From an uncultured Chthonomonadaceae bacterium (lineage in GTDB: Bacteria > Armatimonadota > Chthonomonadetes > Chthonomonadales > Chthonomonadaceae), in the NCBI GenBank assembly GCA_963835065.1, contig CAWIEK010000063.1, forward strand, positions 32,001 to 96,000: a stretch of DNA of 64,000 bases, in the 5' to 3' direction. The position numbers and the translations under genes are program-made. A model generated the notes under the pieces. The model did not search any database, had not been told where the DNA came from, and saw only the letters and a program-made list of their open reading frames with translations. Shown here in pieces: positions 24,077 through 32,474 of the stretch (the stretch's first letter is position 1; each line of letters begins with the position of its first letter).

Positions 24077-24862
24077 ATGAACACTCCTCCCCCCGGTTCG
24101 CCAATTGAAGAAGACGCCGCGTTTGTCGAGATTGCGCCGCTGTACGACATGCTGATGACGGGTGTGCCGTATACGGAATGGATCGTGTACTTACGCAAAC
24201 TGCTGGACGAGCGCAAGGCGCGGCCCCGGCAGGTGTTGGATTTGGCGTGCGGCACGGGCAATGTGTCGGAACTGCTGGCCGGCGAAGGCTTTGCCGTGAC
24301 GGGCGTGGATATTGCGCCGGGCATGATCGCGCAGGCGCAGGCGAAAGCGGCACAGGCGAATTTGCCGATTGCGTATGCGGTGCAGGACGCGGCTCTGCTG
24401 GATCTGCCGGGCAAGCGGTTCGATTTGTGCGTGTCCCTCTTCGACAGCCTCAACTACATCACCGACCCCCTCCGATTGCAGATGGCGATGGAGCGCGTGG
24501 CCGCGCACCTGACCCGCAACGGCCTGTTCATCTTCGACCTCAATACGGAATACGCCCTTGCCAACCACTTCTTTGACCAGAACAACCTGAGCAGCAAGGA
24601 CCGCCTGCTGTACGACTGGAAAAGCGACTTCGATCCGCAAACGCGCCTGTGCCGGGTCCACATGAACTTTCGCTATACGGCGGAAGAGGGAACGGAGCGC
24701 GTATTCGAGGAAGTCCACTGGCAGTACGCTTACCGCACGGAGGAGATCGTTGCCATGCTGGAGCAGGCGGGTTTCGACCAGATCGCCACCTACAAAGCCT
24801 ACACCCTGCGCCAGCCCGTCCGCACTTCCGACCGCATCTTCTACGTCGCCCGCCGCCCGTAA
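24077..24862 (+). CDS. Class I SAM-dependent methyltransferase
   Basis: VLDLACGTG, GVDI, FDSLNY, GLFIFDLNT. Confidence 0.9.
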   Translation: MNTPPPGSPIEEDAAFVEIAPLYDMLMTGVPYTEWIVYLRKLLDERKARPRQVLDLACGTGNVSELLAGEGFAVTGVDIAPGMIAQAQAKAAQANLPIAYAVQDAALLDLPGKRFDLCVSLFDSLNYITDPLRLQMAMERVAAHLTRNGLFIFDLNTEYALANHFFDQNNLSSKDRLLYDWKSDFDPQTRLCRVHMNFRYTAEEGTERVFEEVHWQYAYRTEEIVAMLEQAGFDQIATYKAYTLRQPVRTSDRIFYVARRP

Positions 24863-25488
24863 GGGCTTTGCCATGAACAGAAGCAAGCATTTGTTGGTGA
24901 AGGTAGAACAGGAAGATACCGGCTGAAACAGCAGTGGTTTACACGGTTTGACCATCATGGAGATTGTCTAAACTGAATGGCTACCTTCTTATGGAAGTAT
25001 TGCGAAGCCGTTATTAATCGTGTGCGTTATGGATCGTTGCCAAAGGCAGAAGCGCGGATACGCGACAAGACAAGCGGGGAAACAGTTGTTGTCTTCACAG
25101 TCAGCGACGCTTTTGTGTTTACAGGAATGGTTTATAATGTTCGCAGGAGGACAGGAACATGAGTCTGACACTCGACGATACACGCCTGCTATATAGCCCA
25201 ACTTGTGCCTTATGTAAGCACCTCAAATCCGCTATGACGCCGATGTGTGATGCTTTTCCCACAGAAAACGGCATCCCGGACGAAATCTGGACGGGAAGGA
25301 ACGATCATCATCAGCCCTATCCCGGTGATCACGGTATTCAGTTTGAACATCGGAAGCAACCGACCAAAGCGGCGTCACAAGAAACCGTTTCGCGTTGATG
25401 CTGTTGTAGCAATGGCGGCTGCCCCGCCCAGTCTAATAAAATCGCCTGCGCCCTCCCGTCTGCATCTTCTACGTCGCCCGCCGCCCGT
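24834..25488 (+). repeat. 27-bp exact direct repeat duplicating the methyltransferase 3' end
   Basis: GCATCTTCTACGTCGCCCGCCGCCCGT at 24834-24860 and 25462-25488. Confidence 0.95.
25159..25398 (+). CDS. Small Cys/His protein, paralogue 1 (CxxCxH..CxAFP..GIP..PYxGDHG)
   Basis: AGGAGG at 25145-25150 and TATAAT at 25133-25138. Clear similarity to 28222-28440 and 29385-29639. Confidence 0.85.
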   Translation: MSLTLDDTRLLYSPTCALCKHLKSAMTPMCDAFPTENGIPDEIWTGRNDHHQPYPGDHGIQFEHRKQPTKAASQETVSR

Positions 25489-25500
25489 GAGGTGTTGCTT

Positions 25501-26340
25501 ATGCCCTGCGCCCTTGTGCTGCCATTGAAACCTCTGAATGTCGCGCCGATGCCCGAAGCCGTCAATGACTGCGCCCACGCCGCGTTTTTCGCACTGATTG
25601 ACAGCGTGGATGCGTTGTTGGCGCAGCGTCTGCATGGCATGGAGGAGCGCAAGCCGTTCACGCTGTGCCCGCTGTACGGAGAACCGCGCGGCAAGGATGC
25701 GCGGACGGGCGGCCCCCTTGTGCCAAGCGGCCTGCGCCTGACCCTGCTGGATGACGCGCTGTTTGCGGTTGTCGCGCACGCGCTGCTGGCGAATACAGCC
25801 GGGGCAATCCTGCGGCTGGGTGAGGCGCATTTCACGCCAACGGCGGTGTGGGTGACGGCGGACGCGCATCCGCTGGCGGGGCAGGCGGCGTATGCGGATT
25901 TGTACGGGAAGGTGGAGTCGCCCGAAACATTGACCGTGACCTTTGAAACGCCAACAGTGTTTCGGTCGCAGAAGCGCGATGTGCTGTGGCCGGAGGCGCG
26001 TTTGCTGTGGCAGTCGTGGGCGCGGGCATGGGCGGCGTTTGCGCCTTCCGTGTGCCGTCTGCCGGACGAAGCGCAAATTCTGGACTGGGCGACGCAAACG
26101 GGGGTGACAGGGCATAAACTGCAAACGCGAACCGTGCCGTTGACGGGAAGCGGGCAGGCGGGTTTCACGGGGTTTTGCGCCTACGACCTGAGCGCCCTGC
26201 CCCTGGAAGCGCGGCGAACCTTGAATACTCTGGCCGCCTTCGCCTTTTACGCGGGCACGGGCCGCAAAACCGCGATGGGCATGGGGCAAACGCGCTGCCA
26301 GCCGAACCAGCGCAAGCAAGGGATAAGGGATAAGAGATAA
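25501..26340 (+). CDS. cas6: CRISPR pre-crRNA processing endoribonuclease Cas6
   Basis: N-terminal HAAFF, KPFT, FETPTVFR, GFTG, and C-terminal G-loop FAFYAGTGRKTAMGMGQ. Adjacent to arrays. Confidence 0.92.
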   Translation: MPCALVLPLKPLNVAPMPEAVNDCAHAAFFALIDSVDALLAQRLHGMEERKPFTLCPLYGEPRGKDARTGGPLVPSGLRLTLLDDALFAVVAHALLANTAGAILRLGEAHFTPTAVWVTADAHPLAGQAAYADLYGKVESPETLTVTFETPTVFRSQKRDVLWPEARLLWQSWARAWAAFAPSVCRLPDEAQILDWATQTGVTGHKLQTRTVPLTGSGQAGFTGFCAYDLSALPLEARRTLNTLAAFAFYAGTGRKTAMGMGQTRCQPNQRKQGIRDKR

Positions 26341-26529
26341 GAGTATGTAGAGTCATCGTCGAAATCTTGGCAATGCAGCGCTTCCAGCCCGATGTCTCAT
26401 TGTGTCAAATTGTAGGAGAGAGGCGTCGTGGCCTCCAAAGCGTCAGGGCGAACGGGAGGGGTGGGACATGGGCCTGTACCTCCTTTGCTGAGTGAGTAGT
26501 TGATAGTTGATAGTTGATAGTTGATAGGA

Positions 26530-26922
26530 ACTACCAACGTTCAGCCTTTGTGCCTGGATAGTAGACACTTGTGCTATTTAGACAGGATGTGTGGGGAAAA
26601 GGTTCACTGTTTTTGTGTTGTTTGGCTCTTTTTTTCATCTTTTTTCCATCTTTTTTGCTGGATGGTTGCTGTTGGCGTCGGGCAGGAAAGGGGAGAGGGC
26701 GCTTGCCTATTCCGGTTGGACCGGCAGGATTTGCCTGCCTGCCGGCGCGAACCGGAAGTGATGGCGGCGCACGGTAGAGGTTCGCGCTGGTTAGGAGGCG
26801 TTACACCGACAATTCCTGTCAGGAAGCGGTGAAATCATCAAAACGGTCGAAAAATATTTGCAAAAAAGTGGTAAAAGAAGGAGGAATATGTCAATCAAAG
26901 GCAGAATCAAGGCATACTACCC
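26530..26922 (+). promoter_or_regulatory. Putative leader of CRISPR array 1
   Basis: Non-coding stretch with A/T tracts directly before the first repeat. Confidence 0.55.
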
Positions 26923-28159
26923 GTTGCAACGCCCGTTTGCCCCTCACGGGGATTGAAACCGCTTAACTACATTCGCGAATCTTGAGTAACATTACGCCTC
27001 GTTGCAACGCCCGTTTGCCCCTCACGGGGATTGAAACTGCCGTCTGGAACGCGCCTGTCTACCTGTTCTGGGCGTTTCGTTGCAACGCCCGTTTGCCCCT
27101 CACGGGGATTGAAACCCTTGATTGCGTCAGCATCGATCGTCGAAGCATTTCATGTTGCAACGCCCGTTTGCCCCTCACGGGGATTGAAACCTTGACTCAA
27201 ACTGTGTAGTGATGTCACGTTGTCTTGTTGCAACGCCCGTTTGCCCCTCACGGGGATTGAAACCTGACACAATGTTGCAACTCGCATTCATGCGTTAACG
27301 TTGCAACGCCCGTTTGCCCCTCACGGGGATTGAAACATGCGTCTCGGCATGACTCGTACTCTAAGTACGCGTTGCAACGCCCGTTTGCCCCTCACGGGGA
27401 TTGAAACCGCAACATGCGCACTGCGCAGGTTGCAACGCCCGTTGCCTCTCACGGGGATTGACAACGCTCGATCTGCCAGTGCACGGCAGGTTGCAACGCC
27501 CGTTTGCCCCTCACGGGGATTGAAACGTCATTCGGCAGCATGCGTAAGCCAGGTTGCAACGCCCGTTTGCCCCTCACGGGGATTGAAACATCATTTGCTG
27601 CGTATCGTTATCAACGCGGATTGGGCATGATTGGCAAGTGTATGCAACGTCCGTTCGTTTGCCCCTCACGGGGATTGAAACTCTGTCAAGCTGCGATGCG
27701 GCAGTTGCAACGCCCGTTGCCCCTACGGGGATTGAACATTCGAATCGCGGCGCTAATCAGTTGCAACGCCCGTTTGCCCCTCACGGGGATTGAAACGATC
27801 TGCCAGCGCGTTGTCAGACATCGAGCATTGCGTTGCAACGCCCGTTTGCCCCTCACGGGGATTGAAACATCCGAACCTGCCGGATACCGCTCTCGTTGCA
27901 ACGCCCGTTTGCCCCTCACGGGGATTGAACGATGCCACCTGCAGCGTTCTGGCGCAGGTTGCAACGCCCGTTTGCCCCTCACGGGGATTGAAACCTTTGC
28001 AAGCCGGTCTTCCATGTACGCCAGGCTCACGTTGCAAGCGTTGCGCCGTGTGAATTGCAACGCCCGTTTGCCCCTCACGGGGATTGAAACTCAGACGGTT
28101 GTAATGTCGGCAGCGAAACTTTGTTGCAACGCCCGTTTGCCCCTCACGGGGATTGAAAC
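26923..28159 (+). CRISPR. CRISPR array 1: 18 repeats GTTGCAACGCCCGTTTGCCCCTCACGGGGATTGAAAC (37 nt)
   Basis: Counted by eye. Several central repeats carry indels and spacers range about 21-59 nt. Orientation from the ATTGAAAC 3' end and the leader. Confidence 0.97.
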
Positions 28160-28221
28160 TTAGGCGACAGCGGCAAATTGGTGTACAATAGAAAAAACCG
28201 TTCGGAGAAGGAGGCCAGGCT

Positions 28222-28440
28222 ATGAAAGGGCATATCGAATCCGACAATTTGCCTGTGGTAAGTCAAACATGTTTCAGTTGCCGCCACTGGCAACCAGGCA
28301 ATAGGACATGTGCCGCTTTCCCGGAAGGTATTCCTCTGCCAATTTGGATGGGTGAAAACAATCACCGACAGCCTTATGCCGGCGATCATGGCATACGCTA
28401 TGAATCAGTACAACAGCCCGTTTTAGCCAAAGCCTCTTGA
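28222..28440 (+). CDS. Small Cys/His protein, paralogue 2, located between two CRISPR repeats
   Basis: AGGAGG at 28209-28214 and TACAAT at 28184-28189. CFSCRH..CAAFPEGIP..PYAGDHG. Confidence 0.85.
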   Translation: MKGHIESDNLPVVSQTCFSCRHWQPGNRTCAAFPEGIPLPIWMGENNHRQPYAGDHGIRYESVQQPVLAKAS

Positions 28441-28460
28441 CACGAGTACGCGAAGCGCGA

Positions 28461-28567
28461 GTTCGATCCGAGCGCTTCCCCTCACGGGGATTGAAACTCT
28501 GCGTTTCCTCTCTGTCGAATAGATTTATAGAAGTTGCAACGCCCGTTTGCCCCTCACGGGAATTGAC
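28461..28567 (+). CRISPR. One-spacer mini-array with two different repeat types
   Basis: 37-nt GTTCGATCCGAGCGCTTCCCCTCACGGGGATTGAAAC (28461-28497), a 35-nt spacer, then an array-1-type repeat with degenerate end (28533-28567). Confidence 0.85.
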
Positions 28568-28585
28568 TGAGATTATCCATAGAAA

Positions 28586-28676: not shown

Positions 28677-28994
28677 TCAGCAACCGGAGAGCGTGACGGG
28701 TGAGGACGCGACTACTTCAACGGGGTTGTTGGCGCTGATGGGAGTGAACTCCAGCAGAACAATTGCGATGCCGTTGCCAAGACGCTGTTCAATCACAATG
28801 TCTGCTTCCTCGCCGTTCCGGGCATCGCGGCAGAGCCTTTGCAGTAGTTCCGCATCCGTCACTTGCGCCATTTGTGAAAACAATTTGCGCTTGCCGTCCG
28901 GGCGCGTCACGATTTTGGAGTAGGCGAGCATCGGCGGTTCATCTTGCGTTAAGCCATGAATTTTAACGCGCATCTTTACGGTTGTCTCGATCAT
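28677..28994 (-). CDS. Hypothetical protein (105 aa)
   Basis: GGAGG-type RBS before MIETTV. Overlaps the end of the upstream gene. Confidence 0.6.
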   Translation of the reverse strand: MIETTVKMRVKIHGLTQDEPPMLAYSKIVTRPDGKRKLFSQMAQVTDAELLQRLCRDARNGEEADIVIEQRLGNGIAIVLLEFTPISANNPVEVVASSPVTLSGC

Positions 28995-29320
28995 TGTCTC
29001 TCCTCCGGCCACGCTGCAAAACCGGCAGACGTTCCAGCACGGGCGGCAACCTTTCCAAATCCTCTCCACTTCCGCCTGTCGGAATGTATTCCATGCGGAA
29101 CAGGTCAAAGACGCCTTCTTGATTGTACCGTCTTCCAAGCAAAATCACTTTGCGCATAACTGCGATCAGGAAAAACGCTCACCGAATACAGGCGCTGCCC
29201 TGCCTGATCGCCAAAGTACAAACTAAAGGTTGCGCCGCCGTTTGCCTCATGCAATTGCAAGATCGTTTCGGATGCTTGTTCAACGTCCTGTCTTGCAGGC
29301 AACTCCGTATCAGAGCGCAT
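28963..29320 (-). pseudogene. Hypothetical protein broken by a frameshift or internal deletion near 29160
   Basis: N part MRSDTE..NGGATFSLYFGD..LYSVSVFPDRS and C part LGRRYNQEGVFDLFRMEYIPTGGSGE are in different frames. Confidence 0.55.
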
Positions 29321-29384
29321 TAAGTACGATTTGAGAGTGTTTGCCACACGAATAGAATTCATCAACAGAACGGAATTGTCCTGC

Positions 29385-29639
29385 ATGATCAAGACGATAC
29401 AATGTGCTTTTTGCATCCACTACGAACCGGACAGAAAGCCACAGAGCGGCGAACAGAGGTCGCTTGCGCGTGGGTGTTGCGCGGCCTTTCCTGATGGCAT
29501 CCCGGAGGCAATGGTGGAGGGGCGGCATGACCACCGCCTGCCGTATCCGGGTGATCATGGAGTTCGATTAGAATTAATGCCGGGACTTACGCCAGCATTA
29601 TTGGGCGATTTGCCGGAGCCAATGCGGAAAGCCTCTTGA
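29385..29639 (+). CDS. Small Cys/His protein, paralogue 3
   Basis: CAFCIH..CAAFPDGIP..HRLPYPGDHGV; ATG at 29385. Confidence 0.8.
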   Translation: MIKTIQCAFCIHYEPDRKPQSGEQRSLARGCCAAFPDGIPEAMVEGRHDHRLPYPGDHGVRLELMPGLTPALLGDLPEPMRKAS

Positions 29640-30036: not shown

Positions 30037-31363
30037 GTTCAAATGAAGGGCTTCCCCTCACGGGGATTGAAACGTTATCGGCACGCTGACCTCATATTGC
30101 CCAGAGCGCTGGTTCAAATGAAGGGCTTCCCCTCACGGGGATTGAAACGTCGTTAGCTGCGATGAATTGCTCAGTTTCTTGCTAGTTCAAATGAAGGGCT
30201 TCCCCTCACGGGGATTGAAACGGGCATGTACCATGAAATTCATTCCTAACCTCTCGTATGTTCAAATGAAGGGCTTCCCCTCACGGGGATTGAAACGTGA
30301 CTCCGATCGTCCAGCATACGGTGCCTCGTACTGCCGTGTTCAAATGAAGGGCTTCCCCTCACGGGGATTGAAACGCGATGGCCGTCCTCGTCACAGTTGC
30401 GATGATCCGGCACGCGTTCAAATGAAGGGCTTCCCCTCACGGGGATTGAAACGTTCCGCATGCGGCCAGCGAGGCTCTGTACCTGCTGCTATGTTCAAAT
30501 GAAGGGCTTCCCCTCACGGGGATTGAAACGGCAGACGCTTCCAGCGAATCAGATGCTTCGCATGCGGTTCAAATGAAGGGCTTCCCCTCACGGGGATTGA
30601 AACGCCCGTACGCATGCAGTATCGACGATCGTGCAAGCTTAGCCTGTTCAAATGAAGGGCTTCCCCTCACGGGGATTGAAACGCATGCGATGCAGGTGAT
30701 CGCATGTGCTATCGCTGTCGGGGTTCAAATGAAGGGCTTCCCCTCACGGGGATTGAAACGACCATGATCTAGAGACATTGAGCGTAGCTACCTTGACCTG
30801 TTCAAATGAAGGGCTTCCCCTCACGGGGATTGAAACGTCTGATCGGCATATAGCCGTTTATGAGCCTGCCGCCGTTCAAATGAAGGGCTTCCCCTCACGG
30901 GGATTGAAACGGTCAGCTCCGCCAACTTGACGTATTGCGAAGCTGCGCGGTTCAAATGAAGGGCTTCCCCTCACGGGGATTGAAACGACAAGACTTCCGA
31001 TGAATGTCGTTCACGAGCTTCATACGTTCAAATGAAGGGCTTCCCCTCACGGGGATTGAAACAGTGACATGCGATGCACGAAGCGTGTCATGCTAGATCG
31101 GCTCGTTCAAATGAAGGGCTTCCCCTCACGGGGATTGAAACGCGCCCGTCAGCGAGCAATCCCATGGCCCTTGGTCCGTTCAAATGAAGGGCTTCCCCTC
31201 ACGGGGATTGAAACGTCAAGTGGCTGCCACACCATTCGCAGTAGCGCTCCACGTTCAAATGAAGGGCTTCCCCTCACGGGGATTGAAACGACTTCACGAC
31301 CTGTCCTGACGTTCAGCCAGCTGGACGCGACGTTCAAATGAAGGGCTTCCCCTCACGGGGATT
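30037..31363 (+). CRISPR. CRISPR array 2: 18 repeats GTTCAAATGAAGGGCTTCCCCTCACGGGGATTGAAAC (37 nt), last one degenerate
   Basis: Counted by eye; 17 spacers of about 36-42 nt. Confidence 0.97.
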
Positions 31364-31439
31364 TGAGTTGAGGGTGATTGCCGCCGGGTGTGAAGGCGCG
31401 GCTTTTGTTCGTGGAACCATCGTGCTGTTGTTGCTTCGG

Positions 31440-32474
31440 ATGGAGAACGCCCGTGCTGTTTGGGGAACTGACGCCACTTCAACGCCTGAGCCTGCTGCCC
31501 TGGCTGCCTGCGCCTGATTTTGCGCCGCTTGCCCCGGAAGAAGCGGACGTTTTGCGGCAGGCGCGGGACCTTGCCGGGGATTTCGGACGCTTTGCCCGTT
31601 GCGCTGCAAACCCCGTTTGCCGGGCTGCGCGTTCCCGCCATAGGGGATATGCCCGGATGCCTGCCGCCGCCCGTCACCTACTGGCCGCTTTCTCCTGCCG
31701 ATCCGCCCGATGTTCGCCCGCCCGATATTGCCGCTTGCCTGCGCGATTGGCAGGCCGACGTGAACGGGCTGAACCTGCTTCCCGCCGTTTCTTTTTCGCG
31801 CCGCTACGCCGCTCTGATGGGACTGGCGCAATCCCATGCGGCCTGTCTTGGCCTGCCCGGTCAGCCCGACATTCCCCTGCTGCAAAGCCGCCGTTTGTGG
31901 AGCGCCCTTGCCGCCTGCCTGTGGACGCTGCGGCAAACACCCGGCGACGGGGAGGAACTCGCCCTGCTTGTGGCCGATCTGTCCGGCATCCAGTCGTACC
32001 TGTTCGGAACCTCTGACGTTCGGCGTGGGCGGCGTGGCCCGTTCCCTCCGCGCCCGCAGTTTCTTTTTGTCGCAAATCACCGCCCTGTTCGCGTGGCGGC
32101 TGCTGGAACAACTGGAACTCCCGCCCGGCAATCTGCTGCTCGACGCTGCGGGCAAGTTCTACCTGCTGTTCGCGCCCACGCCCCGCGCCCTTGCGATTGT
32201 GGAACAGGCCCGGTGCGAAGCCGCCGTCTGGTGTCTCCACGAACTGCACGGCGAACTGGCCCTCAACGTCGGCGTCACCCGCTTTCCGCTTTCCGCCTTC
32301 ACGGATGGCAGTATCGCCCGCGCGTGGCAGGACGCGCAGCAGTCTATCGCGCAGGCCAAGCAGCAGAAATTACGGGACGCGCTGCAAATCTTGGACGGGC
32401 AATGGCCGGGTTGTTTAACTCCGATTGTGGCCGGTGACAGGCGTAACAGTCGTTTCACCCCATCACGATGTTGA
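31440..32474 (+). pseudogene. cas10: Cas10/Csm1 remnant (first Palm region), frameshifted, no HD domain, truncated before GGDD
   Basis: LLVADLSGIQSYLF, then (shifted frame) ARSLRARSFFL..NLLLDAAGKFYLL..AKQQK, matching Csm1 GDxSGIQxF / LRGRSF / GGxFYLL. Ends at the leuS 3' end. Confidence 0.8.

Follow-up and report, generated by a model that had tools for sequence, protein, structure and literature searches.

A 301-base segment seated between two different CRISPR repeats in a Chthonomonadaceae genome appears to be the end of a phage MuF toxin-partner module that entered the array by a single crossover in a 20-base repeat core and was kept as an orphan immunity gene, a reading to which we assign a probability of roughly 0.5. 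The window, that is, the whole stretch of 64,000 nucleotides that was analyzed, lies on contig C63 of the organism's own genome (G000); G001 and G002 are genomes of the same genus. At the level of sequence, a foreign origin, a toxin stub, an intact partner gene, a foreign right repeat, and recurrence of the layout elsewhere are all apparent. The features of the locus are as follows.

24821-25492 (+): sister cassette with an internally deleted JAB toxin remnant (24977-25162) and a paralogue (25159-25398); sequence comparison
25492-26340 (+): cas6; Pfam CRISPR_Cas6 (E = 1.2e-18) and Cas6_N (E = 5.3e-13)
26923-28122 (+): array 1, 17 repeats and 17 spacers upstream of the insert, with spacers 7-16 irregular (19-59 bases); repeat listing
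28123-28159 (+): left joint, a perfect array 1 repeat; repeat comparison
28160-28225 (+): headless 21-codon tail of a putative MuF-type JAB toxin, holding TACAAT and AGGAGG; translation and tail profile
28222-28440 (+): gene for a 72-aa CCCH protein, MuF-toxin partner and putative immunity protein; phrog_33375, profile, and third-position GC content (GC3)
28441-28460 (+): 20-base trailer; nothing above chance in the comparison with the own genome
28461-28497 (+): right joint, a full-length repeat of a third type; repeat alignment and hairpin folding
28498-28532 (+): ordinary 35-base spacer; composition and own-genome match search
28533-28569 (+): worn terminal repeat of the array 1 type; 97% over 34 bases
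29385-29639 (+): third paralogue, 5' of the array 2 leader; protein match
30037-31370 (+): array 2, with the same core and a different 5' half; repeat comparison
about 31378-32474: type III-A cas10 remnant after array 2; domain match

The original prediction had described a perfect repeat, 301 bp, and a full-length variant repeat, with TACAAT, AGGAGG, a 72-codon ORF, and a 20-base trailer in between, and every one of these elements is present. The segment (28160-28460) contains TACAAT at 28184-28189, AGGAGG at 28209-28214, 7 bases 5' of the ATG, and the ORF at 28222-28440 (72 aa). It lies inside array 1 at the trailer end, and a worn array 1 repeat lies beyond it. The reported absence of a transposase and terminal inverted repeats was also borne out: there is no transposase ORF and there are only two weak internal inverted pairs, so that the insert lacks the hallmarks of an insertion sequence or MITE. 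Compared with a canonical spacer, the insert shares an origin from foreign DNA (phage family, low GC3) but is far longer than the 35-45 bases found in the array on C49, and its flanking repeats are not duplicates of one another. For the 35-base spacer that follows, matches in the own genome did not exceed 13 bases and there was no clear target, and no protospacers for the spacers were found in the own genome or the fetched loci. Pairing of the trailer with this spacer as a structure was only partial (z = -1.37) and was rejected, and in an Rfam search the repeats of the window reached no family.

The reading frame that starts at the repeat edge, from 28160 on, reads LGDSGKLVYNRKNRSEKEARL and ends in a stop that overlaps the ATG of the 72-aa ORF. 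The first 63 bases of the insert correspond to the tail of a headless MuF-type toxin (JAB fold) and follow the repeat with no gap. Against a profile of 51 toxin tails, which were picked by a motif filter with the loci of this window left out, the stub gave a short match of only 3.8 bits, the best of six frames, and none of 300 shuffles scored as high (maximum 3.7). TACAAT codes for Tyr-Asn of the toxin tail, and a promoter scan found no site at 28184; a weak promoter in the stub region is possible. The segment had been described as a complete, expressed-looking gene, which our data do not support: a toxin stub makes up its 5' end, TACAAT falls within a frame that is open as in toxin tails, and the promoter scan is blank there. 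The related view of a gene in a spacer position survives in part: foreign DNA and a real gene do occupy that position, but not as a self-contained unit with its own promoter. An independent gene, driven by its own promoter and standing between the end of array 1 and a regulatory mini-array distinct from it, composed of the variant repeat, the 35-base spacer, and the worn repeat, would agree with the presence of TACAAT and AGGAGG and with the mini-array shape of the two-repeat unit. We give this arrangement very little weight, since no promoter was called, the 5' region is toxin-coding, the 35-base spacer lacks a clear target, and the last repeat of array 1 would have to be a perfect one, with the worn terminal repeat stranded past the insert.

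The 72-aa ORF matched phrog_33375 (E = 2.8e-6), and a protein identical at 70 of 72 residues is encoded on an independent 2,620-base contig; together, these two results indicate that the ORF is a real gene. Its GC3 is 0.42, compared with 0.81 for the neighboring methyltransferase. The protein had no match in Pfam or NCBIfam, and a profile search gathered 8,483 clusters at E values up to 0.001. C17, C20, C30, and H48 do not vary among 74 aligned members, a pattern that hints at a metal site. The predicted fold (pLDDT 82.6) matched three uncharacterized phage proteins only and nothing in the PDB, and the family is without a solved relative. The conserved "KAS-stop TTGACA" ends were considered as a promoter or att site and rejected, as they represent a shared C-terminal family motif with no -10 box after it. 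At 28423-28440 and in homologues, the Armatimonadota members end in LAKAS, LAEAS, or LAKA, which we take to resemble a C-terminal degradation tag.

Of 80 fetched viral loci, 70 could be scored for the ORF upstream of the family gene; this ORF carries a MuF or minor-capsid domain in 43 of the 70 and an ADP-ribosyltransferase domain in 15. A small ORF directly behind the C-terminus of a MuF toxin is thus seen both in these 43 viral loci and, behind the stub, at the insert. In 53 loci, the upstream gene ended in an E..HNHP..S..D domain, for which the closest relative of a model was the RadC JAB domain (E = 0.004). An assignment of the toxin alignment to RadC by Pfam was rejected, with a match in one of 52 members (E = 0.022). 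At least three unrelated toxin classes precede the family (JAB, ADP-ribosyltransferase, and, by eye, metallopeptidase-like), which calls for caution about a specific immunity role. When the complex of a related cognate pair was predicted (L232; partner 56% identical to the 72-aa protein), it scored 0.60 against 0.01 for the best control, with contacts agreeing to at least 86% and a partner pLDDT of at least 75. The range up to 0.60 holds only 18 of 157 solved complexes, together with the two mismatches, out of 215, that passed. The modeled pair lends weak support to the view that the 72-aa family is a likely immunity protein for MuF toxins.

We then consider the repeats. The right repeat is identical to that of array 1 at 26 of 37 positions, including the last 20 bases, and to that of array 2 at 31 of 37, including the last 24 and the first 4 bases. 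It folds its own 5' hairpin beside an intact core hairpin, and its 5' half is the part that varies among the arrays of relatives. These properties argue that it is a well-formed sister repeat of a foreign type amid array 1 repeats. Its 5' 21 bases were carried by no other genome among the GTDB genomes searched, and no donor array of the third repeat type was found in GTDB genomes or among the same-core arrays of 401 genomes of the phylum. In G001 and G002, there is no CRISPR locus behind the methyltransferase and hence no empty site to compare.

The combination of repeat, stub, and partner gene recurs elsewhere. In G001 (L036), a headless JAB frame and a family gene come directly after a DR9 repeat, and a 30-base second repeat copy and a second family gene lie beyond them; this genome (97% complete) shows no cas1, cas6, or RAMP gene. 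In a Methanosarcinaceae genome (G407, L329), four DR7 repeats spaced 528, 470, and 372 bases apart enclose three units, namely a toxin tail with a family gene, an ADP-ribosyltransferase-like stub (by eye) with another small gene, and an 8-codon tail with a family gene. One of these units has perfect repeats on both sides, and the first and third, being 78% alike, may derive from one capture. The family gene is present in 26 of 151 genomes of the Methanosarcinaceae. Among 30 loci returned from that family, the last repeat of an array joins a cut family gene in L360, a worn repeat lies shortly 5' of the start in L362, and a stub and gene abut a DR7 repeat in inverted orientation relative to the repeats in L351. 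In a further locus (L156), an array runs into a MuF gene that has lost its head, and prophage genes come next. The toxin stubs start exactly at the repeat edge in L036, L329, L351, and L156.

Counted at 70% identity, 8 of 164 non-viral family genes had a repeat no more than 250 bases away, a tally inflated by the own gene, by two genes of G407, which was selected for its layout, and by a repeat library drawn partly from the matched loci. The eight comprised 3 of 57 genes in the Armatimonadota set (one being the own gene), 4 of 33 in Methanosarcinaceae, and 1 of 74 in metagenomes, and they include L219, where an array lies 87 bases behind the domain and no stub joint was shown; the tally leaves out L351 and L156, whose repeats are farther away than 250 bases. 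By comparison, 0 of 220 reversed controls and 0 of 56 viral genes lay as close to a repeat, and 0.14% of the own genome is within that distance. Two patterns likewise gave no matches in viral contigs, and the insert therefore does not behave like a repeat-integrating prophage. The closest independent homologue (L148, 63%) has a repeat-like hairpin behind the gene, but this agrees with DR9 at only 21 of 37 positions and has no Rfam match, and it was left uncounted. A narrow pattern searched over all GTDB genomes returned four matches, two of which (L326 and L327) were rejected as chance matches. The layout appears to be uncommon.

The original prediction had offered two routes, gene-sized acquisition into the array or recombination using the repeats as joints. 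The second is favored by our data, as the right repeat is foreign and shares the 20-base core, and genes of the same family lie between CRISPR repeats in other genomes. Acquisition straight into array 1 is unlikely, because Cas1-Cas2 integration duplicates the repeat and the repeats on the two sides are mismatched at 11 of their 37 bases. The wider proposal that the 301 bases were taken up as an overlong spacer by Cas1-Cas2, possibly with the Cas1 adjacent to a reverse transcriptase, either at this locus or in the array of a donor, is also one that we consider improbable. It would account for the clean left junction and for the L329 unit with perfect repeats on both sides, and the own genome does hold three cas1 loci, one of them beside a reverse transcriptase. 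Nevertheless, the insert sits at the trailer end, the other spacers of the own genome measure 35-45 bases, and in the same-genus genome with the layout no cas1 is seen. In the L314 region of the own genome (5430-7450, G000:C49), a reverse transcriptase gene is directly followed by cas1 and a 26-repeat array.

A neutral origin was weighed as well. An ordinary spacer derived from the toxin tail may have undergone recombination with the corresponding protospacer of a phage or prophage and drawn in the downstream DNA, after which a deletion left 301 bases with the gene as a passenger. Stubs that begin at the repeat edge in four loci agree with such a scar, as do the fusion to a headless MuF gene and prophage genes in L156, the cut partner gene in L360, and the inversion in L351; the inverted and truncated cases indicate that capture needs no usable gene. 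Recombination between spacers and phages is also in print, as described in the part of PMC8616872 that cites Varble 2019. This origin leaves unexplained why a foreign, well-formed right repeat stands between array 1 repeats and why several units of the same polarity with intact partner genes occur in L329 and L036, and comparison of the insert with its flanks found no spacer-length second copy. We therefore rate it as rather unlikely.

Repeats of these types also occur outside arrays. Solitary DR9-like repeats were observed in the leaders of housekeeping genes in the own and the two same-genus genomes (G000:C49:678648-678684 on the minus strand and G000:C44:158480-158508; loci L259, L261, L262, L265, L267, L271, L272, and L278). 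The genes 3' of them, named from translations, are rpsN, rpmJ, rpsD, tuf, ahcY, and a fabF-like gene, and in the own genome a second cas6 adjoins the repeat before rpsN. Such repeats may have been domesticated as an element for RNA processing or regulation. On G407:C33 and C64 (L332-L335), additional DR7 repeats, single or in pairs, are scattered between genes, and at L289 (G382:C228) two different repeats with a 51-base spacer have the shape of a regulatory mini-array.

Same-base neighbors were depleted in spacers 1-16 of array 1 and in the 16 scored spacers of array 2 (0.16-0.17 versus 0.256; p = 2e-3, 1e-4, and 7e-9), whereas they were normal in the last spacer (0.258), the insert (0.287), and another array of the own genome (0.241). 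Probably, the leader-side spacers represent a blended consensus and the trailer end is clean. In array 2, 16 of 17 spacers begin with G, and the regions 26960-28053 and 30074-31252 resemble a blended long-read consensus; spacers in these regions should not be used as real spacers. One-base indels were found at 31582 and 32014 relative to contigs from two or three runs each, and these differences at the cas10 remnant may be assembly errors. No contig spanning the insert junctions was among the matches listed from four public DNA runs, and no RNA run was among the runs listed. An assembly error, in which noisy long reads were wrongly joined at the 20-base core common to the repeats, would be in keeping with the blended neighboring spacers and the indels. 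We regard it as highly unlikely, given that the insert and the last spacer are normal in composition, the insert has array 1 repeats to its left and right, other assemblies show the layout too, and the methyltransferase and the genes at 28677-29416 are neighbors in both same-genus genomes too.

The genes at 28677-29416 (minus strand) form a two-gene module with no assigned function and several paralogues in the genome (also L046 6350-7470 and L047 5600-6415); the module lies inside a gene-end duplication in G001 and is inverted at the same locus in G002. Between cas6 and the leader, at 26330-26710, lies a multi-copy element of about 375 bases, which is found at least six more times in the genome and is covered very deeply by public runs. 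The cas10 remnant is cut off by a convergent leucyl-tRNA synthetase-like gene, and the RAMP clusters of the own genome are on C44 and C48.

The own genome contains eight full or partial paralogues of the 72-aa protein, and an intact JAB domain is encoded on its contig C49 (about 602613-603200). The sister cassette, immediately 5' of cas6, is enclosed by 44 duplicated bases from the 3' end of the methyltransferase gene; sister cassettes in relatives are surrounded by duplications of 89 and 152 bases, and in G001 a duplicated gene end surrounds other small genes. Since these cassettes sit in duplications of ordinary sequence (44-152 bases), the case for a dedicated CRISPR-linked system is weakened, and CRISPR repeats may simply be good homology targets.

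Returning to the preferred reading of a single crossover, the piece taken comprises the last 21 codons of a JAB-fold toxin and the intact partner gene, and would have been carried with one sister-type repeat. Its first capture in the donor may have occurred by spacer-protospacer recombination or by oversized Cas1-Cas2 integration. A circle of insert and sister repeat would then be inserted by one crossover with array 1 in the shared 20-base core, which would yield the exact order of array 1 repeat, insert, foreign repeat, old spacer, and array 1 terminal repeat. The repeat would act as a homology joint, like the duplicated gene ends of the sister cassettes, and a dedicated enzyme is not assumed. 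As the gene has lost its toxin and probably lacks a promoter, it would be read from the array transcript. Release by Cas6, as proposed originally, is compatible with the geometry, in that cas6 is encoded at 25492-26340, the core hairpins are intact on both sides, and a 338-base product is possible; Cas6 may cut out this RNA with a putative 8-base repeat tag. G001 shares the layout and shows no cas6. The gene would persist, without its toxin, for the immunity that it may give against MuF toxins.

Integron gene cassettes consist of a promoterless ORF and one short joint and can in principle excise as a circle and re-enter. Here, by contrast, the joint is a CRISPR repeat, and no attC or integron integrase was shown. 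In the report on MuF toxins of temperate phages (PMC5576092), a small ORF is described behind 89.4% of 191 muf toxin genes, and immunity is proposed for it. The insert is alike in its small ORF directly behind a MuF toxin C-terminus and differs in that the toxin is reduced to 21 codons, the pair lies in a CRISPR array, and the CCCH family lacks a Pfam or NCBIfam model. Polyimmunity loci and orphan immunity arrays, as outlined in sections of PMC3482391 and PMC5361080, are similar in having immunity-type genes without toxin, in tandem and in the same orientation (L329, L036), and added by recombination. In the present loci, however, CRISPR repeats join the units and toxin stubs precede the genes; the insert is a single unit, compared with three in L329 and two in L036. 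Joining of phage DNA at a repeat/spacer edge is also a feature of the recombination between phages and CRISPR arrays treated in passages of PMC8616872 (Varble 2019) and in part of the account of phiAP1.1 (10.1101/2020.10.09.333658), but here there is no integrase or whole prophage, only a 301-base piece between two different repeats. Deletion by recombination between repeats was suggested in a portion of PMC4524480. No description of toxin-stub and immunity cassettes between CRISPR repeats was found in the open-access literature searched, which is weak evidence of novelty. In summary of these comparisons, the insert resembles neither a canonical spacer, nor an insertion sequence, nor a repeat-integrating prophage, and its mode of action would be that of an orphan immunity array in which CRISPR repeats form the joints.

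A broader possibility, which we put forward tentatively and with clearly less confidence than the local reading, is that bacteria and archaea use CRISPR repeats as movable joints with which immunity genes are stored much as in an integron. Phage toxin-partner modules would lose the head of the toxin at the repeat edge and retain the entire partner gene, move between arrays as repeat-bearing circles, and be expressed from the array transcript, providing a protein-based memory of phage toxins. The multi-unit loci L329 and L036 offer test cases for it in two domains of life. The CCCH family, with its 8,483 clusters, no Pfam model, and no solved fold, is a testable partner family for phage MuF toxins. 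If true, CRISPR arrays would store and pass on whole protective genes besides guide sequences.
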